Source: Okamejei kenojei (Eukaryota). Taken from it: 64,000 bases of DNA. Of the stretch, positions 5,222-63,627 are shown piece after piece. The translations under genes and the position numbers were made by a program. The stretch's first letter is position 1, and every line of letters begins with the position of its first letter. The stretch lies in assembly GCA_035221665.1 (NCBI GenBank), contig CM069157.1:17980001-18044000 (forward strand), given 5' to 3'. The notes beneath the pieces are model-generated. The model was not told the origin of the DNA. It ran no database searches and saw only the letters and a program-made list of their open reading frames with translations.

Positions 5222-6852
5222 CAGTGCCCTCTATAATGTTCGGGCCAAAGACCCATCATTTATTTATTTGCCTCTGTACTCCACAATTTGAAATTTGTAA
5301 TAGAATAAATCACATGTGGATAAAGTGCACATTGTCAGATTTTAATAAAGGCCATTTATTTCATTTTGGTTTCACCATGTCGAAATTACAGCAGTGTTTA
5401 TACATAGTCCCTCCCCATTTCAGGGCACCATAATGTTTGGGACACAGCAATGGCATGTAAATGATAGTAGTCATGTTTAGTATTTTGTTGCATATCCTTT
5501 GCATGCAATGACTGCTTGAAGTATGCGATTCATGGACATCACCAGTTGCTGGGTGCCTTCTCTGGTGATGCTCTGCCAGGCTGTATTGCAGCCATCTTTA
5601 GTTTATGCTTGTTTTGGGGGCTAGTCCCCTTCAGTTTTCTCTTCAGCATATAAGACATGCTCAATTGGGTTCAGATCGGGTGATTGACTTGGCCACTCAA
5701 GAATTGACCATTTTGTAGCTTTGACAAACTCCTTTGTTCCTTTGGGATCATTGTCTTGCTGTAGAATGAATTGCCAGCCAATGTTTTGAGGCATTTGTTT
5801 GAACTTGAGCAGACAGGATGTGTCTATACACCAGAATTCATTATGCTACTACCATCAGCACTTGTATCATCAATGAAGATAAGTGAGCCAGTACCTTCAG
5901 CAGCCATACATGCCAAGGCCATAACACCGCCACCACTGTGTTTCACAGATGAGGTGGTATGCTTTGGATCTTGGGCAGTTCCTTCTCTCCTCCATTCTTT
6001 GCTCTTGCCATCACTCTGATATAAGTTAATCTTTGTCTCATCTGTCCACAAGACCTTTTTCCAGAACTGTGGTTGTTCTTTTAAGTACTTCTTAGCAAAC
6101 TGTAACCTGGCCATCCTATTTTTGCAGCCTACCAGTGGTTTGCATCTTGCAGTGTAGCCTCTGTATTTCTGTTCATGAAGTCCTCTGTGGACAGTGGTGA
6201 TTGACAAATCCACACTTGACTTCTGAAGAGTGTTTCTGATCTGTCGGACAGGTGTTTGGAGAATTATTTTTATGAAAGAGAGAATTGTTCCGTCATCAGC
6301 TGTGGAGGTCTTCCACTGCCAGTCCCTTTGCTATTAGTAAGGTTCACCAGTGCTCTCTTTCTTCTTAATGATGTTCCAAACAGTTGATTTTGGTAAGCCT
6401 AAGGCTTGGTTAATGTATCTAACAGTTTTATTCTTGTTTCTCAGTCTCATAATGGCTTCTTTGACTTTCATTGGCACAACTTTGATCCTCATGTTGATAA
6501 ACAGCAATAAAAGTTTCCAAAGGTAATGGAAAGACGGGAGGAAATATTAGGTGCTGAGAGCTCTCTTATACCTGCATTAAGCAGGCAATTAAACACACCT
6601 GAGCAATTACAAACACCTGTGAAGCCATGCGTCCCAAACATTGTGGTGCCCTGAAATGGGGGGACTATGTATAAACACAGCTGTAATTTCTACATGGTGA
6701 AACCAAAATGTATAAAAATACTCTTTAATAAAACCTGACAATGTGCACTTTTACCATATGTGATTTTTTTCTATTACAAATCTCAAATTGCAGAGTACAG
6801 AGGCAAATAAATAAATGATGGGTCTTTGTCCAAAACATTATGGAGGGAACTG
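5222..6852 (-). mobile_element. Tc1/mariner DNA transposon (IR/DR type), full-length size, decayed transposase
   Basis: TA target duplications at 5220-5221 and 6853-6854; about 220-bp TIRs (5222-~5444, ~6631-6852) starting CAGTGCCCTC with an inner direct repeat cagggcaccataatgtttggga; ORF 5824-6213 has WKKVLWTDETKINL and VKHSGGGVM motifs; frame broken. Confidence 0.93.
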
Positions 6853-13500: not shown

Positions 13501-14760
13501 TTTGATTTCAAAATAAAGTAATATGAAAATACAAGACTTTGGAATATATTTATCAGGTAATATGGCGAGCTCTAATGTATATAAAGCACCTGAAAACAGA
13601 AAAAGGAGCAAATCGCAGCCCCAGTCAGACAGTACATAAACAGGCCTTTGGTACATGCTGGCCCATAGGAATCCTATTTCTCAGCATTTGGTTCATGAAC
13701 ATCTGCACAATTTCAAGCGCTCATATAATTACTTCTTAAATGCTGCCAGAATAATTATCTTAACGAGCCATCAGAGGGAGAGAGTTCCAGATTGTTTTTG
13801 GTATATTATTGTCACGTGTACCAAGATACAGTGAAAAACACGATGATATCCATACAGATCATACCATACATGACTGCATTCATATCATGTATGGGTGGGA
13901 GTGCACAAAGAGAAAATAATCAGAGCAAGTGCAGGGATGGGCAGACAAGTGGCAAGTAGCATTTGTGTCAAGTGTCAGGCAATGACCACCTCCAACATCT
14001 AGGCACCTATCTTTGACGTGCACAAGCAGTTTCCCGGCCCCCACTATTAGCAACTTGCAGAGGATAGGGTGTGGGGGTTCACCATTAACCAATATCTCAA
14101 CAACAGGTTGATAAGTAACGACCATGGCTCCAAATGCAGGTCCGAGACTATATCATATGGCAAGCAACTAACAAGGCACAAGTGATGGGGTACTCGCTAC
14201 TCGCTTTGGTCGAGTGCAATGCCAACATTTTCAAATCACGACAGCACTATCCAGGCGAAGTAGCCAGCTGGACTTGCAGCCCATCCAACACCGCAAACAT
14301 TCAATCCCTCCACAACTATTCTCTTCATCAGATCTTTCACGATTTGTTTCGGAAACCAGCATCTGCAGTTCCTTATTTCTATGTTCATCATCTGTATTGA
14401 ATCAACTTGTTAAAATGTATTTGACTATACTCCTGACCTGTTCCTAATAGAAAGTCAATGATTGCAGGTGCAATCTCCACGCTGCACACCATGCTGCTAT
14501 TGACCATCACCGTTGCTGAGAAAACGTGCTGAACTCTCCACCTAACAGCCTTGTTGTGCATCATCAGCAATGGATCACAGCAGTTAGAGAAGGCACTGCA
14601 GCACTACTTTCTAATACAGTAAGTTAAGAGTAATGTTACCCTTGGTAGCTCCATCTCTATCTGGTGTACGAATACAAATATAAAGGGAATACAAATATAA
14701 AGGGAAAATATAAATATAAAATATAAATATAAATACAAATATAAATATATAGAGAGAGTA

Positions 14761-15245
14761 CAGAGGAGATTTACTAGAATGTTGCCTGGGATCCAGCAAC
14801 TATGTTACAGAGAAAGGTTGAACAAGTTAGGTCTTTATTCTTTGCAGCGCAGAAGGTCAAGGGGGGACTTGATTGAGGTCTTTAAAATGATGAAAGGTAT
14901 AGACAGAGTTGACGTGGATAAGCTTTTCCCATTAAGGGTAGAGAAGATTCAAACAAGAGGGCATGACATGCGAATTAAGGGACGGAAGTTTAGGGGTAAC
15001 GTGAGGGGGAACTTCTTTACTCAGAGGGTGGTGGCTGTGTGGAATGAGCTTCCAGCAGAAGTGGTGAAGGCAGGATCGATTTTAACATTTAAAAGTAAAG
15101 TGGATAGGTATATGGACGGGAAGGGAATGGAGGGGTATGGTCCGAGTGCAGGTAGATGGGACTAGGGGAAAACAAATGGTCAGCACGGACTGGAAGGGCC
15201 GAGAGGGCCTGTTTCCGTGCTGAAATTGTTAAGTTATATGGTTAT
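14761..15245 (+). mobile_element. CR1-type LINE 3' fragment
   Basis: ORF 14779-15165: RERLNKLGLYSLQRRRSRGDLIEVFK...FFTQRVVAVWNELP; preceded by an (aatata)n stretch. Confidence 0.9.
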
Positions 15246-16406: not shown

Positions 16407-19400
16407 CTCATCATCTGTATCACTTTGAGCAGAAGAATCGGGTTTATTAGCTTTCACCGCGAAGCAGTCTCCACCGGTCTCTACCAGCTCACAGAGTGGT
16501 TCTGGGTCTAAGGATAATTCCCAAGGGCTGGATTCAAAGCCTTCTTCCTGCATCTCAAATAAAGATTCCAGCGTTCCTTCTTCGATAAAGTCATCATCAA
16601 GGTATGAAGTGGAAACATTTTCCAGCACATCAGCCTGCAGGCTAGTCTCCCAACTTTGAGCTCTGTTTGCTTGTCTTTCCAGGGTGGTGTTAATAGTATC
16701 CTCATCTTCGTCAGATTGGAAAAGGAACCTGATCCTTCGAGTACCTGCTCATCAGTATCCTCATCAATCAACACGACCTCACTGCAACTTCTCCCATGTT
16801 GAACAAGAGCATCAGACGTACAATCTATTTTTGAGTTATCACTATTACACGGTGCTTCTGTGGTATCAGTGTCCACTGGATCTAAAGCAACAGGGTCGGT
16901 AATGTCCAAGCATATTATTGCATCCAACTCTATCAAACTTTTCTGTTTGTCCCATTGAAAATCAGTGAAGTTGTCCGTCTGAAGAATATGAATCTCTGCT
17001 GCATCAGGCTCCACTTTAAAGTCTGAGAACTCTGATTGAACATTAACTTCACATTCTTCAAATTCAAGGCATATACTGTTTTTTCTTTCCAAATTAAAAT
17101 CATGCCTTTCTTTATCGGAATTACCAGGAAGTTTGTCTGCATCACAGTCTGCATCAATCACATTAGAAATTATAACTTCCTGAGAACAGTTTGTGAAATC
17201 TATACTAGGTGCTAAAGGATGGAGAGGACAACTTGTCGTAGGGGGCTCAGCAACCATTTCACATTCTTCTAACTGGACAAAAGCCGCCTGCATATCCCTG
17301 GTCTCCTCCACACAGTGCAACGTTGCCATCTGCTGAGCACAGTGCGAGAGATCAAGATACGAGGCTTCGATGGAATCTGTTGAAGGAATTTCAGTAATAA
17401 ACTGATGTTCATTTAAGTGGACAAAGTCTGTCGGCATGTCCTGATTTTCTTCAACAGCAGACAACATGACCACTTCCTGAGCATAACCAGCAAGATCTGA
17501 ATCTGTTGGTGTGCATGGATCTGCTGGGGGGCAAAGAGCAATTGGTTCACATTCTTCGAAATGAAGAGAGTTTAGTTGTCCTTCATCTTTTACACCAGTA
17601 CTCTGCATTCCACATCCGTCAATTAAAGCTTCACAGTCAATACCTGTAACCTCCACCACAAATGCAGTCTCTTCATCTTTATTACTATTTTCGTCAATGA
17701 ACACCTCATTTGCATCGATCATAACTTCGGAGGCATCGTGAACGATTTGTAAATTGCAGTCCTCTTTAGATACATTTTTAAGTTCTTGACTTGCATTGGC
17801 ATCAGGGTCAGTGTCAGACCCTTGTGGAAGGGTACATTCCGATATCTCTTTCTGATCAGCATAATATTTCCATTCTGTAGAAGTAGTTGATCTTTGTTCA
17901 GTTGCAGTAACTCTCCTCAGGCGATGTTGTTTGTTTTCTAACTCTTCAAAGATTTTCTCTTCCTCTGAACTCCGGCTGACTAAAGAGCTCAATGTTTGAA
18001 AAGTTATAAATTCTTTTTCCCCTTCTATTAACACGTCGGATTCCATTATTTTGGCCGTGCCCATAACTCTTTTCTCATCTTGTTCAAACCTTAACGAATG
18101 TGCACCCCCCTCTGTGCTTGCCAAGATGACAGCATCCAGCTGTTGAAATGCTGATTCTTCAAAGAGATCTTTGCTGTCTGCAATCATCTTTCGCTCTTCG
18201 TCTTCAAACTGGAGGAGGGAGTCTGCATCTCCTTTCGTGTTTTCCAAGATTACAGCATCCAATTGACCTGCAGCCTCTTCAAAAATGAAATTGTCTTCAG
18301 TCTGTCTTTGCTCTTCATAAAAATGTGTCGGAGAGACTGCATCTCTCTCTGTGTTTTCCAAGATGATTGCATCGAGCTGCTGAAGTGCTGATTTTTCATC
18401 CAGGAATTTTTCATCTTCAACCAGTCTCCGATCTTCTTCAAGCTGCATTGCAAAATTGAATCCCTCTGCGTTTTCCAAAATGACAGCATCTAATTGCTGA
18501 AATGCCAATTCATCATACAATTCTGCATCTTCAATGAGGCTTTGCTCCATTTCTTCAAATTGTATCAGAGAATCTGTATCCCCCTCCGTCTCCCCCAAGG
18601 CTACATCATCTAGCTGAAATGATTCCTCAAAGATATACCTTTCATTATCCATGGGGTTTCTTTGATCTTTAATTTGTATTAGTGATTCAGTATCTCCCTG
18701 TACAACCTCTATTGCAGTATATCGGTGAAATTGTTTGTTACCAGGCTCCTTGTCATCAATCACTTGTTCTTTTTCAAATATTGGATTAACTTTGTCATCT
18801 ACCTGCTTAATAATTAAATTATCTAACTGTTGAGGTGCCGAGTCTTCAATGAGATTGTCTTTTTCCTCAGTCAATCTTTGCTCCTCTTGCTCAAACTGCA
18901 ATAGGGAGTCAGTATCTTCCTCTCTACCTTCCAGGATTACAGCATCTAGTTGCTGAAGTGCTAATTCTTCACTCAGAAATTCTGACGTAAACAGCATTTC
19001 TTCAGTTTCACGCCGGTGCACCATTTCAGGGTTAACGTGGCATTTACATGCCTCTTCGTAATTCTGTTCATCAAATTCAGCTGTAACCTCCTGCACATCT
19101 AGTCTGGTTGCACCAGAATCTAACACCCCTCGACATTCCAGAGATGCTGCGTAGGTAACGATCCTTTCCTGCGCCAGATCAATTGTTCTTTTATGTAGAA
19201 ATGAGGCATCTTCCAACGTCCCTTTGGTCTTGAAGGCTCTGGGCCATGTTGCAGATATACTTGTATGATGCTCTGGTAAAAATCTTGCCATCTCCAGTAC
19301 ATGTTTACACTCCATTAACGGAGCACTTTCACTCTCTGAACTTTGAGATAAAACTGTAGCAGTTTTCAATTTGCTTTCTGCTCTTTGCTGAATGACCAGG

Positions 19401-20023
19401 GTTCTGGCGGATTTGTGTTCATTTGCTATTGTTGACTTAGGTATGATCAGTTCTTTTTCAGAAGATAGATCAGGACTTTCAGCAAGCAAGTGGCTAGAAA
19501 GCCTCTTCTCTTTAATTGAATTAGAACTACCAGTTGGCTCATTGGCGGACACCTCCGTTCGTTCTGTGAAGTCTGGGTAATTTGGAGGCAGGAAAGCTTT
19601 CCAGGACCTCCTGTTTGTGTTTTCCTTTCTCTCAACGTGCGGTCTCCGCTTTGGTGGACCAGAAGACCGAATAACATCACTGCTCAGTTTTAATGCGTCA
19701 AATATAAGTCTTTCATCCAACTTTTTATTTTCAGAACTAAATCGCGTTTCAAATACATTTGACGTAGTGGGCGTTCCATTACTTGATAAAGTGCTCGAAT
19801 CCACAGCTCTCTGGGTTTGCGAATGTGTGTGGTCAACAAAACATCTTGATGGCGGGTTAGCCTTTGCCCCAAGGTCTATCTGTTCATTAATTCTCATGGT
19901 GTCATAAATAGATCTTTGCGGAATGTAGCAATCTTCAATGTACATGTCGTCCTCTTCATTCTTTCTTAAACAGGTGGGATTATTACGTCGCAAACAGTCT
20001 GGCCTACTGAGTGGCTTCCCCAT
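16407..20023 (-). CDS. KIAA0754: KIAA0754-like giant alternative first coding exon nested in a MACF1 intron (1-nt frameshift near 16720)
   Basis: N-terminus MGKPLSRPDCLRR...YIEDCYIPQRSIYDTMRINEQID...KKLDERLIFDALKLSSDV...NRRSWK.F.PPN and SATWPRA match human KIAA0754, which sits in the equivalent MACF1 intron (recalled, not searched). Track ORF is 16508-20023; the acidic frame continues to GAG|gtattt at 16407, in phase with exon 8082. Confidence 0.9.
17150..17566 (-). repeat. Coding tandem repeat, about 3 x 48 aa (xHxEECE...DL..AQ...VEE..DM...F)
   Basis: LHFEECE...VEENQDMPTDF / VHLNEHQ...VEETRDMQAAF / VQLEECE...; the first two units are both 48 aa. Confidence 0.75.
18061..18970 (-). repeat. 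Coding tandem repeat, about 8 x ~39-41 aa (EE.AFQQLDAVILE..EGD.DSLLQFE)
   Basis: Recurrent QQLDAVILE/QLDAIILE motifs in the ORF translation. Confidence 0.9.
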
Positions 20024-23000
20024 AATTAGATTGGAATTTCAAATATCCACAGTACAAAGTAGATAAATTTAAAAAAAAAGATATTGAACTGTATTCCACA
20101 TCAGATAGAAGAGTGTATCTGTATATTTTAATCCAAAAGGCACGCCGTTATATTTAGAGATTCCAACAACATATTACTCACTTGTCATAGCAATGAAGCC
20201 CAGGCAAACTATAAAATCATTCCAGGAAAACAACAACCAAACCAATTTGTGCATTCAATTCAGATTCTTTTCAGTTCAAATGCATGACGGCTGACAAGAA
20301 AAAGGTATTTCAAAGACTGTATTCCAACTGTGCAAATTCCTTTCATTTTAACCACAAACTACAATGCCCAAATGCCCAGCTGCTGCAAGGGAGGCAGTCC
20401 TTGAAATTCCACATGTTTTCTTTTGAAAAGTGATTCTTGGCGGATATTCCGGCAGATTCAAAGACAGGAAGTTCTTCAATCAGTGGGGCTTCAGCTGCTT
20501 CCTCCCTTAGCAACATCATGGCATTTTTTAAAAAAGTCTTCAACTTCAGAACAATGGCTAAAAGTTTCCAGATGAGACTTCCTTGAGAGAAAACTGTATT
20601 AATTAATTGATTGGCAAATAAATACCTTTCAGGTTTAAGACATTTGGCAAAATCCTGTAATTCCAGTCAGTGTACAGTTTACACTGTTTAACTCCAATTT
20701 AAAATGCACTGGTCCTAAGGCCACGGATCCTCTTCCAGCAAGGTTCGTTTATTTATTTATTCCTGTTTTAATCCAGGCATTATTTTTCTTTTTCCTCAGA
20801 TGTTGGTAAAAAAAACTTTCTCCTTTTGCGTTGTGAACAGTAGCAAACAGACTGTGAGAGGTCTGACTGACAATTCTCTTCAAAACGTAGGGTCCAGTTG
20901 TCACGTTGTACAAGGCAAACTATTGCTGTTGAACAAAAGAGTGTTGAGAGCTGCCACGCTCTGTCCAGCTTTTCCAAAAATCCCAGCGCAGCTCCTTCCT
21001 TAGCATGTGCTGTCTAGAGAAAGTTAGCACGACTGGTTTGTTCATGGGCAATGTAAAGCTGCTGTGATTAATCCCATAGCCTACGTCAGCTTCTGTGCCT
21101 AATTAGATGCAGTTACGCTCTCTTCACCACAAAGAATCTTGCAGCAGCCTTGTCAACTTTCCAGAACTTAGGAAGAGGTTAAAAAGAGTTTTAAACACTT
21201 ACTTATTTTATTTGATTGTAAAACTGCCGCAAGTTCTTAAGCAGTGCTCTATGCAAACGGTTTCCACTGGATTTTTTCCCTCTCTCAACCGACTTCAGTG
21301 TCTCCTTGCTGTACAGACAAAGAAACGCCCTTTTTTGGTTGCTCTCTTGCTCTCTCTCTCTCTCTCTTGCTCTGTCACACACAACGCTGAATAGCATCTG
21401 TTGTGATCCTATTTTCACCGCCAATCGCGCAACATTATGAATGCCACTGAAGGTTCGACCTTGTGCACTCTCCCCTTCTGCGATTACGTTTCAGCCCCAT
21501 GTGGTCAAACTGCAGCTTTTCAGAAAGTTGACTCTTTAATGGCTGTTTGTCTCATACTTTTGCTTTAGTTTGCATACGAGACATAACTGTGGGAAGTGTG
21601 CTATGGAAGGAAACAAAGCCTTCAATTTTAGATTAAGATTCAACATTGAAAAAACCTTGCAATTTGCCTTGAAATGTCAACTCTTAAGGTGTCTGTTTTC
21701 ATTCTAAATCAAATTAATATAGGATTTTTTTTTAATAACTTGAGAATTCCACATTACATAATTAATTTACCATTGAAAAAGGATGAATAATCTTGCTTTT
21801 AATTAAAAGCCAATTAATACAAATACTTGATCATAAACCCTTTACAATTCTCAAACTTTACAAATCGCAGTTTAATTTATTTACAAAATATTACTCTGAA
21901 TGGCTACATGATCTAAGTTCAGATATTTTAATATTGGCTTATTGGGGGTCTTCTTGAATATCAAATGACTCAACAAGATGACGTCTGAATTGAACAAAAC
22001 AAATAAACGTCTGAAGTAAAAACCTAAGGAGCAAGCCCCTCTGGGCATTGCAAAAACAAGTTTTCATCAAGACAAGTTCAGCCAATATAATGTGAGAATT
22101 CTAAGGGATTAATATGTGTATCCCTTCAGTGCAATCTTGCTACGGAAACATTAATCAATTCAAAATTCTTTTTCTGCTTTGTCACATCCTGGGTGCCTCT
22201 CCAGTTCCTGTTTTGGCTTTGTTTTGCTACTCTCATCCTTTTACAAGGATACAACCATAGTATTGAAGAAAAACAGCGACCATATTCCAGTGTAACATCC
22301 CCAGAAAATTGTTTTACAACATAATCAAAATGTTTCAGCAGAATCTATGGAAATTCAAATTATAATAATTGTCTGTGTCCAGTGGTGCACATGAAATAAT
22401 ATTACTCTGAGTCACAATATATTCTTTATCTTTTCAAACATGCCTTTAGTTGAGAGCAATTATTTTTCTAAACCACACATATTGAAGGGGGGGTAAACAA
22501 AGGCTCAAGATTTTACTTTCAACACGGGGCCTGCACTTTAACAACAATTTAAAACAATAGTCTGCCCTCACTAAGATTTCCCTCAAAAATTAGATCTTTA
22601 CATTTATAATAGTAGTTACCACAATTATAGTCAATTTTCCAGATAAGAACACTTCAGCTTTTGCTGTGCAGAGGCATTCCTAAAGAAATCTTTAGATTAG
22701 AAAATATTCACTGATTTAAATCATGAGGATTAATAATAAATTAGACGTCTAATCTTTCTATTGTTAACCCAGTTTGTGTGCAATTGTTGTTTTACTGGCA
22801 ATTGCATTATTTAAAGGTAATATGAACAGCAAACTAAAAGGCTAACAAAAACACCGAGTTATGTTAAAATTGTTTAAGTCCCAAACCTGGCTACATTTAA
22901 GAGTACTGGGGAGCTCTGGTCTCTACACTGTGTAAAGGTCACAGAACCACTGACAGACATGGAAAAAAATGGATAAAATGTTCAGAGAACAAAACTCGTA

Positions 23001-24249: not shown

Positions 24250-25810
24250 ATTGTCTTGACAAATCTCCAGGGCCTGATCTGATATATCCGAGGACATTGT
24301 GGGAAATTAGAGAGGAAATTGCGGGAGCCCTGGTTGTAATTTATGTCCTCAAATACAGGAAAGGTGCCAGAAGACTGGAGGGTAGAAATGTTGTACTTCT
24401 TTTCAAGAAGGGCTGCAGGGAAAATGCTGGGAACTATAGGCCGGTGAGCATAACATCTGTAGTTGGTAAGGTACTGGAGAGTATTCTGAGAGATAGGATA
24501 TACAGGCATTTGGATGGGCAAGGGCTAATTGGGAAAAGTCAGCATGGTTTTGTACGTGGGAGGTCATCTCACAAATCTGACTGATTTTTTTGAAGACATG
24601 ACCAAAAAGGTTGATGAGGGCAGAGCTGTAGATGTTGTGTACATGGACGTCAGTAAGGTGTTCGACAAGGTTCCGCATGGTAGGCTGCTCTGGAAGGTTA
24701 GATCGCGCGGGATCCAAGGAGAGATAGCTGAATGGTTAGCAAATTGGCTCCATGAAAGGAAGCAGAGGGTGATGGTGGAAGATTGCTTCTCAGATTGGAT
24801 GCCTGTGACTAGTGGTATGCCTCGGGGTTCGGCGCTGAGCCCGTTACTGTTTGTCATCTATATCAATGATTTGGATGAGAACATACAGGGCAAGATTAGC
24901 AAGTTTGCTGATGATACAAAAGTTGGTGGTTTTGCAGATAGTGAAGATGGTTGTGAAAAATTGCAGCAGGTTCTGGATCAATTGGCCAGGTGGGCGGAGG
25001 AATGGTTGATGGAATTTAATATAGAGAAGTGTGAGATGTTGCATTTTGGGACGTCAAACAAGGGCAGGACCTGCACAATAAATGGTAAGCCTCTGGGGAG
25101 TGTTTAGAGCAGAGGGATCTAGGAGTACAGGTGCATGGTTCCTTGAAGGTTGAGTCGCAGGTAGATAAGGTGGTCAAAAAGGGTTTTGGCACTTTGGCCT
25201 TCATCAGTCGAGTATTGAGTATAGAAGTTGGGAGGTCATGTTGCAGTTGTATAAGACGTTGGTGAGATCGCATTTAGAATATTGTGTTCAGTTCTGGGCA
25301 CCATGTTATAGGAAAGATACTGTCAAGCTTGAAAGGGTTCAGAAAAGATTTACGAGGATGTTGCCAGGACTAGAGGGTGTGAGCTATAGGGAGAGGTTGA
25401 GTAGGCTGGGTCCCTATTTCATGGAGCGCAGGAGGATGAGGGGAGATCTTATAGAGGTGTACAAAATCATAAGAGGAATAGATCAGGTAGATGCACAGAG
25501 TCTCTTGCCCAGAGTAGGGGAATCAAGGACCACAGGACATAGGTTCAAGGTGAAGGGGAAAAGATTTAATAGGAATCCAAGGGGTAACCTTTTCACACAA
25601 AGGGTGGTGGGTGTATGGAACAAGCTGCCAGAGGAGGTAGTTGAGGCTGGGACTATCCCATGTTTAAGAAACTGTTAGGCAGGTACATGGATTGGACAGG
25701 TTTGGAGGGATATGGACCAAGCACAGGGGCAAGTGTAGCTGGGACATTGTTGGCCGGTGTGGGCGAGTTAGGCCGAAGGGCCTGTTTCCACACTGCATCA
25801 CTCTATGACA
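24250..25810 (+). mobile_element. CR1 LINE, 5'-truncated, RT domain with frameshifts
   Basis: GNYRPVSITSVVGKVLE, SQHGFVRGRS, VDVVYMDVSKVFDKVPH, SGMPRGSALSPLLF, SKFADDTK, LERVQKRFTRMLPGL; CR1 tail. Confidence 0.95.
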
Positions 25811-61758: not shown

Positions 61759-62007
61759 CTTCAATGCCTGTTGCTGCTGGTTCAGGTTTCCACCCTTCCC
61801 AGCCGGAGTATCCATTACATCGTCCCGGTCTCGCTGCTGTAAACCATTTCCTAAAGCATCAAATTCATCTTCACCGTGACGGTCTCTGACCTCACGAGAC
61901 CGCGTGTGAGGGTAATATGTGGCTTTCTGCTGCCCAACGGATGACAGCCACTCCAACAGACCATCGATCTTAACCTTATTTTCTTCAAGTTCCTCTTCTG
62001 CTTTTGC
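61759..62007 (-). CDS. MACF1: MACF1 rod exon (phase 0-0)
   Basis: cag|GCA...AAG|gtatga; 249 nt; AKAEEELEENKVKIDGLLEWLSSVG...NLNQQQQALK. Confidence 0.93.
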
Positions 62008-62135
62008 CTGCAATCACAAAATTCTGTTAGCTCGAAGATACAAATTTCATAGAAGTTCTGATGTTTCACAAAGTTTAGGTAGAAGTCAAAAACATTTTCT
62101 TTTCGTCTTTGGGGGAAATCCTACAGATTGACGAT

Positions 62136-62277
62136 CTTCTTCTTCTTGCGTATGGCTTGCACAGCCTAAAGTTGTAGGACAACTTGTTTTATTTGATCTT
62201 ATTTGATTGTGCACGCCGGGTTGATTGCCTTCGTCAAAACAGGGTGGACCACGTGAAGGTTGCAATCTTCCACACCA
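62136..62277 (-). mobile_element. 142-bp short retroposon with (GAA)n tail and 11-bp TSD
   Basis: agattgacgat duplicated at 62125-62135 and 62278-62288; minus-strand 3' end catacgcaagaagaagaag. Confidence 0.85.
62223..62276 (-). ncRNA. Predicted minimal HDV-like self-cleaving ribozyme
   Basis: P1 GGUGUGG/CCACCCU (G1-U wobble, one mismatch), P2 GAUUGC/GCAAUC, P3 ACC/GGU, L3 UUCACGU, J4/2 CGAA, all in HDV order; G1 is 1 nt from the TSD. Confidence 0.75.
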
Positions 62278-63269
62278 AGATTGACGATGAGCAAGTCAGA
62301 TGAGTTGAAGAAGCTTTTCAACAGGTTCTGTGCCAATGGCACACCATTTCAGCTGACCCAACAGTGGACTTGGCCAGCGTTGGTCCAATGGGAGAGGAGT
62401 AGTAAACACTGAAGATGAGGCACACCAACACTCTCTAACCAAACACACATGACAAATATCTGTTCTTGCCCACTCTCTCTTCCTCAGCTCCCTCTCCACG
62501 CCCCGTCTTTCTCCATCTCTCTTTCCTGGTCCACCTCCCTCTCAGCTCCCACCTACTTTGCTCATCTTTTTTCTCAACCCTTTCCTTTCCATCTTGATTT
62601 CCCCTTGCTCTCTATCTCTGCCACCACCACCCAACCCCAGCCCCCAAATCTCCATCTCCTGCTCAACAGCTCTATCCCAGTGTAAAGTTACTTCACCACC
62701 ATTATTTACCCTCTTCTGGTTTTCTCCCTCATTACAATAAAAAACTTTTATGCACTTATTCACTGCATTTTCATAATTCCCTGGTTACTATTTCTAAACT
62801 TGGTATTAGTATAATCAAATTACCATTTTCCACGCAACTAGAAAAAACAGGAAGCAACAAACATTAGATAAATTTGCAGCTCCTTCACCTCTATTTTATA
62901 ACACCGTTTGAGCATTTGATTAGTATAAAACTGCTCTTGCATTACAGTACAGTATACCCTGTTATGGGTGGCACTGCCTTCCCAGAAAATGCTGCAATTA
63001 CAATGTTCTGAAATGGGAACCCTTGACAAAATCACCACAATTCATTGTTATTTTCACATTTTGTGTTTGTTTAGCTACTTTTCCGCACAAATTACATGAG
63101 AGCAAAATGTTCTCTATATCTTAAACGTTCTGGCAGTCACTTGTAAAGTCCATAAGGGGGAATTTTTTATACCCCATGTGCAGTAACATGGGGATACAAT
63201 CTAATATTATAATGTGGGGGGTACTGTACTGACTTTCAATACTTCTATCGATTTTCTGTTGGGTATTAC

Positions 63270-63503
63270 CTTTTCTGTTTCTTGTTGGACAGCTTTCGTT
63301 AAGGCACTGTCTACTTGTTTCTGAAGTTTCTCCGCACTTTGACTCAAGACTTTGTGCTGAGCCTTAACTTCCAATAGTTTTGTCTCAACTTTTGCCAATT
63401 CTTCAGTACCTAGCTTTCCCTCGTTCTCCTGCAATAAGTGTTCCGTGGCCTTGATCACATCCTCCACAGCAGCAGCGCGAGATTGCATGTCTTTTTGTAA
63501 TGC
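63270..63503 (-). CDS. MACF1: MACF1 rod exon (phase 0-0), most 5' exon in window
   Basis: tag|GCA...AAG|gtaata; 234 nt; ALQKDMQSRAAAVEDVIKATEHLL...ALTKAVQQETEK. Confidence 0.93.
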
Positions 63504-63627
63504 CTAAGAAGGAACATAACAGAAAAAATATTTTAATAGCCTTATTGTGAAAGAAGGCGCACAAAACAACACTGACAATCTAGCTACATGTACTTCATGC
63601 CCAAATCAAATCAAATTCCTGTAGCCT

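Follow-up and report, generated by a model that had tools for sequence, protein, structure and literature searches.

Does a short retroposon copy in an intron of the skate Okamejei kenojei start, at the 5' end, with an HDV-like ribozyme, where did such an element come from, and does it act on the gene that hosts it? The questions arise from an earlier note on a 64,000-nt stretch of DNA (the window, meaning the whole stretch analysed), in which a compact HDV-like ribozyme was read on the minus strand. On re-reading, the noted sequence was present, with G1 at 62276 and the putative catalytic C at 62233 in CGAA, as were the order of the HDV nested double pseudoknot, the wobble and mismatch of P1, the 3-bp P3 and the 7-nt L3. 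The element had been described as 142 bp ending in (GAA)n; it is a retroposon with a repeat tail, but it is 141 nt long (62276-62136, minus strand) and ends in (AAG)4. It is flanked by the 11-bp target-site duplication (TSD) that had been noted 1 nt from the predicted cut site, the intervening T at 62277 being an extra base. Features of the window are listed below.

61759..62007, minus strand: host exon, downstream of the element, 249 nt, MACF1-like spectraplakin
62008..63269, minus strand: host intron, 1,262 nt, with the element in sense orientation
62278..62288, minus strand: 5' TSD, 11 bp; a helix of 62287-62281 with ribozyme nt 40-46 is predicted
62277, minus strand: lone extra T between the 5' TSD and G1, likely untemplated
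62223..62276, minus strand: HDV-like ribozyme fold, 54 nt, catalysis predicted (descriptor, family alignment, covariation)
62276-62270 with 62247-62241, minus strand: P1, with a G1-U wobble and a U3-C34 mismatch
62267-62261 with 62229-62223, minus strand: P2 (family 7-bp span), 6 bp at 62267-62262/62228-62223 plus an A16-G48 mismatch on top
62260-62258 with 62250-62248, minus strand: P3, 3 bp
62257-62251, minus strand: L3, 7 nt
62240, minus strand: G of P1.1 (C22-G37)
62239-62234, minus strand: P4 remnant
62233, minus strand: putative catalytic C (nt 44), within CGAA
62274 (P1), 62236 (UUCG loop) and 62229 (P2 top), minus strand: lesions private to the window copy
62196..62222, minus strand: remaining stretch derived from the LINE 5' UTR; within it, 62217-62208 form the 5' arm of a stem whose other arm lies at the 3' end
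62183..62195, minus strand: 13-nt linker at the internal-deletion junction, matching neither LINE end and resembling a short local duplication
62136..62182, minus strand: last 47 nt of a Vingi-type LINE, comprising the end of the ORF with its stop codon, a short 3' UTR and the tail
62163-62154, minus strand: 3' stem arm within the short 3' UTR
62147-62136, minus strand: (AAG)4 tail
62125..62135, minus strand: 3' TSD, 11 bp
5824-6330, minus strand: Tc1/mariner-like transposase fragment, intronic, by the look of its translation
14701-15165 and 24529-25678, plus strand: CR1-like LINE fragments, intronic, by the look of their translations

Taken by itself, the fold of the window copy is weak, suggestive evidence. 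A generic HDV descriptor was run on the window and on 100 dinucleotide-shuffled windows. It matched the window only at the 62276 site, but at the stringency of the window copy 8 of the 100 shuffled windows matched as well, against none at the family's perfect 7+7. The HDV search proposed earlier recovered the site through the descriptor, while the Rfam models gave nothing relevant on the window copy. Nested folding of this copy gave z = 0.03, a value that is uninformative here, with pseudoknots outside the model. Both the matches in shuffled windows and the Rfam negative speak for reading the fold as a chance match in a conventional SINE. With chance matches at this rate a single copy can only be suggestive, and it is the evidence from the family that decides.

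The family is large. A genome-wide search of the element, also proposed in the earlier note, returned thousands of dispersed copies and yielded a consensus. The 2.76-Gb genome contains 1,959 first-look candidate copies, 986 exact 39-nt tails and 5,486 exact matches to the 35-nt ribozyme core (0 for the reversed-pattern control). Mark-recapture gave a copy number of about 44,000 (5/40), which is only rough because none of 30 core-anchored copies had the exact tail and subfamilies differ; the total is, roughly, in the tens of thousands. In the column majority of the family, P1 (7 bp), P2 (7 bp), P3 and a C-G P1.1 are fully paired, and a U-A pair closing UUCG occupies the place of P4. Every pair is formed in the family (L010, L240), while the window copy forms 6/7 of P1, 6/7 of P2 and 3/3 of P3, with P1.1 intact. 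What had been called a perfect 6-bp P2 is thus 6 bp in this copy but 7 bp in the family, the top A-U pair being A16-G48 here. Likewise, a P4 described as essentially absent is not a full helix, but it survives in the family as the pair closing UUCG (UUUG here). At least three subfamilies were distinguished, and the diagnostic changes seen inside the ribozyme (positions 8, 32 and 45) all preserve pairing. The commonest core-intact subfamily (about 21 of the 30 copies L273-L302) is ~139 nt long, has CUAA as J4/2 and carries several changes downstream of the ribozyme.

A single LINE accounts for both ends of the element. A LINE ending like the element was first found via a PF14529 search, and its endonuclease drew five related families (A-E), of which family E has both element ends. 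The autonomous partner anticipated in the earlier note was identified in this family as L262, a natural copy of full length (~3,045 bp) whose 5' end is the ribozyme and whose 3' end carries the same tail. Element and partner match at 87-91% over 78 nt in their heads and at 89-100% over 36-47 nt in their tails; in the element, a 13-nt linker connects ~81 nt from the start of the LINE to the LINE's last 47 nt, which contain the ORF stop codon. The partner is ~3.05 kb long, and its one ORF encodes an endonuclease, a reverse transcriptase (RT) and a C-terminal Cys/His motif. The RNase H family was found in none of the 120 homologues listed, and a 1,019-aa protein 75% identical to the partner (P0001) is also without RNase H by Pfam. 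The clade name Vingi is our assumption from this architecture and a general resemblance, no named Vingi or Ingi being among the matches listed. Assigned by architecture rather than by an RT tree, the parent fits the definition of Vingi in PMC13708176: a compact single ORF with an APE endonuclease and RT, without RNase H.

Since its first ~81 nt and its last 47 nt both come from one LINE, the element is identified by sequence as an internally deleted LINE (SIDE/NARTc type), whose head is the LINE's own 5' end, and not as a tRNA SINE. ARAGORN and A/B-box patterns detected no tRNA or Pol III box in the window copy or L010, and the element is without coding capacity. The proposal of a "ribozyme plus LINE tail" SINE holds insofar as a LINE with both ends exists; its parts do not come from separate sources. 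The partner is Vingi-type and not RTE or R2, two of the ribozyme-bearing groups that had been named as precedents. An RTE partner had been considered and was dropped once the Vingi-type LINE with both ends turned up, and the PF14529 search also gave Nimb-like and CR1-like LINEs, which were rejected as sharing neither end. A "not-SINE upstream" pattern missed the partner, since the segment concerned is part of the 5' UTR of the LINE; all it retrieved were SINE copies with deletions and an unrelated-looking composite repeat.

Two observations on other repeats were made along the way. The composite repeat, separate from the element (L033, L037, L041:1280-1560 and L042), is built of tandem units of ~130 bp that each end in a degenerate copy of the head, with a C/T-rich tract after it. 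Loci L141 (G000:C2:28224500-28230100), L131 and L132 contain apparently intact ORF2s, with 1,276-aa Nimb/I-like and 1,000-aa CR1-like frames, suggesting recently active LINEs.

The genome harbours at least five Vingi-type LINE families side by side. Each has an HDV-like head of its own (54-94 nt), a tail of (AAG)n and an endonuclease region matching P0001 at 33-69% identity. They are represented by L153/L162 (A), L165/L169 (B), L181-L186 (C), L173/L194/L196 (D) and L240/L262 (E), and in each family the fold begins where copies stop resembling flanks. The covariation check suggested earlier was made with one natural copy per family. It backs the fold, with 89 of 90 cells paired and double-sided changes in 13 of 18 pairs, including P3 (A-U to G-C) and P1.1 (C-G to U-A). 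The families are related LINEs with a common ancestry and are, therefore, not fully independent. A C first in J4/2, the U and G of L3 and a purine-pyrimidine pair at G1 occur in 5/5 families and in the window copy, an invariance that is partly built in for the catalytic C and the L3 U and G, since the descriptor demanded them. In family C the top P2 position is mismatched, at the same place as in the window copy. The family D head matches Rfam RF02682 (HDV-F-prausnitzii) over exactly the G1-P2' span (E=0.015), with 32.1 bits against a gathering score of 44. None of six loci reached the gathering score in Rfam, the five loci other than family D did not match RF02682, and the Rfam covariance models do not recognise the 54-nt form. 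The descriptor gave no match in 50 loci (L101-L150, mostly Nimb- and CR1-like) and one stray match, in L253.

The HDV-like fold proposed for the element's 5' end is thus borne out by the pairing in the family and by covariation across the five. A conventional SINE with a fortuitous fold would have to account for the exact position of the fold at the 5' end, the perfect 7+7 pairing in the family and the lack of a tRNA or Pol III box, and covariation over five LINE families effectively refutes it; we give it next to no credence.

Family C, whose copies are about 93-96% alike, is consequently the youngest of the families compared. Inverted ribozyme heads joined to a truncated body, like twin-priming inversions, were seen in family E (L197/L231, L233, L245 and L209), that is, in 3 of 30 endonuclease-anchored loci plus L209.

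If the head releases the element from longer transcripts, insertions should begin at G1, as the earlier note had recognised. Their 5' ends were compared in 40 tail-anchored and 30 core-anchored copies, neither set picked on its 5' end. A TSD was present in 50 of the 70 copies (8-13 bp, mode 11), and 36 of these 50 are flush at G1. In the tail-anchored set, six copies were truncated or rearranged and seven had no clear TSD, leaving 18/27 flush; about 34/40 reached the 5' end. One core-anchored copy was without a tail and six without a TSD, and 18 of the remaining 23 are flush, or 17/22 independent copies once the duplicates L286 and L287 are merged. The other junctions have 1-4 extra bases of variable sequence, some of them perhaps TSD mutations. 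A T at -1 was considered as a base of the element itself and discarded: the extra T in 12 of 21 copies of a BLAST-ranked set reflects query bias, and the anchored sets vary. As the -1 base varies and 36/50 copies have no extra base, the T at 62277 is read as extra, with the RNA beginning at G1. In L273-L302, T is frequently the last base of the TSD, and a G often follows it in the target, which amounts to microhomology with G1. Capped RNA is expected to leave an extra untemplated G at the 5' junction. Extra bases were G only in 1 of 14 junctions, which is no excess.

A start at G1 is also expected from an internal promoter at +1. The head could act chiefly as an internal promoter for Pol II, as a protective 5' structure that binds protein, or as both, on the pattern of L1Tc Pr77 and R2 templates, with cleavage dispensable or slow. 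There are precedents in L1Tc, whose first 77 nt are both promoter and ribozyme (PMC3383444), and in R2, whose 5'-end ribozyme activity spans near-complete to undetectable (PMC11331408). The present fold is, moreover, reduced to one pair plus loop in P4 and to one canonical pair in P1.1; yet fast cleavage is known from cellular HDV-like ribozymes whose P1.1 has one non-canonical pair (PMC13635239), and a C lies four bases before the P2 3' strand in 5/5 families despite a P4 region ranging from 6 to 45 nt. Together with the junctions, where untemplated G is not in excess, these points make a head of this kind improbable, although less so than a chance fold.

We consider it likely, with good confidence, that the element is a SIDE from a Vingi-type LINE whose predicted self-cutting head frees it from transcripts, and that the window copy is crippled. 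Its movement, as we infer it, would start with transcription of a copy, from host read-through or an internal promoter. The double pseudoknot would then cut 5' of G1, with C44 as the general acid, giving a defined uncapped 5' end. The LINE endonuclease-RT would recognise the common 3' end with its (AAG)n tail, and target-primed reverse transcription would produce TSDs of ~11 bp and sometimes 1-4 untemplated bases. Copies would decay after insertion, and only intact folds could seed new subfamilies. As for this last step, 5/40 tail-anchored copies have a fully intact ribozyme, and post-insertion selection on the ribozyme was not seen, substitutions being 2.6-12.5% by ribozyme region against 6.2% downstream. 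Given these few intact copies and ribozyme positions mutating about as often as the sequence downstream, inserted copies appear to decay neutrally.

The host is a MACF1-like gene, as had been noted together with the sense orientation and a distance of about 270 nt to the acceptor: an exon shares 60-64% identity with MACF1-labelled proteins and 44-50% with dystonins, and the 3' splice site at 62009-62008 is 268 nt from G1. A contig of a related organism directly joins the 249-nt exon to an exon at about 63270-63505, which backs the exon structure only. Inside the same gene, a 1,176-aa open frame, acidic and repetitive, lies at 16508-20038 on the minus strand; it may correspond to the KIAA0754-type alternative exon, which it resembles.

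The earlier note went further and expected the intron to be cut as by the CPEB3 ribozyme. The window copy would then still cleave the MACF1 intron during transcription and reduce the spliced mRNA, as happens in Cpeb3. It lies in sense orientation, and its catalytic C, L3, P3 and P1.1 are intact. In two related organisms, contigs of the flank extend into the element by 9-30 bases, below the 31-base bar, a weak hint that the insertion is shared with them and has been tolerated for some time. Against this stand the lesions of the copy, in which P1 pair 3U-34C and top P2 pair 16A-48G are broken and C41U alters the UUCG loop. The top-P2 lesion alone may be tolerated, since family C has a mismatch there. 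P1+P3 amount to -5.6 kcal/mol, against a median of -12.4, and 6 of 60 copies are as weak. C41U also completes a predicted 7-bp helix of the 5' TSD (62287-62281) with nt 40-46, over the catalytic C; this helix and P1+P3 together reach -14.6, whereas each native half comes to about -6. Nested modelling pairs the catalytic C with the flank at p=1.0 (2/60 copies as high), an overstated value because the model cannot form P1 and P2 together. The copy has 5/142 changes relative to the column majority, about the usual number, with no sign of conservation.

For CPEB3, upstream misfolding slows the ribozyme about 250-fold (PMC8233481), and the Cpeb3 effect involves 9,931 nt to the acceptor and a half-life of 2-3 min (PMC10919898); the 268 nt here would be transcribed in seconds. 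With two broken pairs and a predicted inhibitory TSD helix, and as one of thousands of copies that appear to decay neutrally, the window copy is unlikely to have a CPEB3-like effect on MACF1. Continued cutting of the intron seems to us very improbable, and the location in MACF1 is probably incidental.

The segment adjoining the ribozyme offers a further lead: the sequences suggest that Vingi 5' and 3' UTRs may be complementary family by family. For families A-E, the 30 nt after the ribozyme were compared with the 30 nt before the tail, and the cognate 5'-3' assignment was the best of 120 permutations. Shuffle counts per 1,000 were 26, 82, 6, 59 and 48 for A-E, weak for B and D, and the terminal windows ranked within the best 19/555, 109/543, 3/581, 65/591 and 3/560 along the element. 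The complementarity is only a lead, since the windows were chosen after inspection and the 5' segment of family B pairs as well with the end of C as with its own. In the window copy, 62217-62208 pairs with 62163-62154, its subfamily lengthening the stem from 8 pairs in the LINE to 10. The SINE retains both stem arms and drops the 2.9-kb loop between them. We would tentatively extend this to an undescribed RNA architecture common to Vingi, one we hold somewhat less probable than its contrary, in which an active 5' HDV ribozyme and an adjoining segment pairing with the LINE's own 3' UTR into a loop would explain ready two-ends-only derivatives; the 141-nt derivative would have seeded thousands of intact 54-nt, nearly P4-less ribozymes, some of them cutting host pre-mRNAs.

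Elements of this kind are already known, and what is notable here is the small ribozyme and the large copy number. The closest counterparts are the non-autonomous L1Tc/Ingi derivatives NARTc/RIME/SIDER of trypanosomatids, which according to PMC4035085 are likewise short, dispersed, internally deleted LINEs that keep a 5' HDV-like ribozyme and the 3' end, with a parent in the sister clade. In the present case, in contrast, the parent is without RNase H (Vingi-type) and the host belongs to the vertebrates; its ribozyme has 54 nt against 77-126, and copies number thousands to tens of thousands. The R2 SIDE of Drosophila willistoni, shown to self-cleave, also combines a ribozyme with the parent's 3' end and has 5' junction variation and untemplated bases (PMC3414825), but R2 is site-specific in 28S rDNA with a restriction-like endonuclease, and that SIDE is 529 bp long and rare. 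The hedgehog derivatives of Vingi-1_EE, non-autonomous and with internal deletions (PMC5786205), are of the same clade by architecture and of bipartite origin; the difference is that five Vingi-type families here show the fold. Minimal HDV-like/theta ribozymes have an essentially absent P4 and the catalytic C first in J4/2. The present fold stands at the head of a vertebrate retroposon and retains a UUCG remnant closed by one pair; minimal forms, by contrast, were about 99% phage-confined in one survey, often beside tRNAs (PMC10879173). The CPEB3 ribozyme shares the HDV fold, the intronic location and the sense orientation, but it is single-copy, conserved for about 159 My (PMC8233481) and about 10 kb from the next exon, whereas the window copy is mutated, one of thousands and 268 nt from its acceptor.

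A review describes genomes that contain ribozyme copies by the hundred, as well as non-autonomous SINEs that bear ribozymes (PMC6765202), and Vingi is absent from the ribozyme-bearing clades given in PMC5786205. Among the portions of the literature on Vingi and ribozymes or HDV available to us, no ribozyme assigned to Vingi was found, and ribozymes of animal Ingi/Vingi may have been treated before, in Kojima 2011, Ruminski 2011 and Webb 2009; a search on HDV-like self-cleaving ribozymes in shark retrotransposons found only R2 and hammerhead work.

The predicted fold would extend 5' HDV-like ribozymes to Vingi-type LINEs, in a very small (54 nt) eukaryotic form. The Vingi clade is used for RNA-only gene writing with native UTRs (PMC13708176), so that a ribozyme and end-pairing in these UTRs would bear on template design. 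The thousands of copies constitute a natural mutational library, with which one could test whether retrotransposition requires self-cleavage and whether a vertebrate selects against intronic ribozymes on the sense strand.
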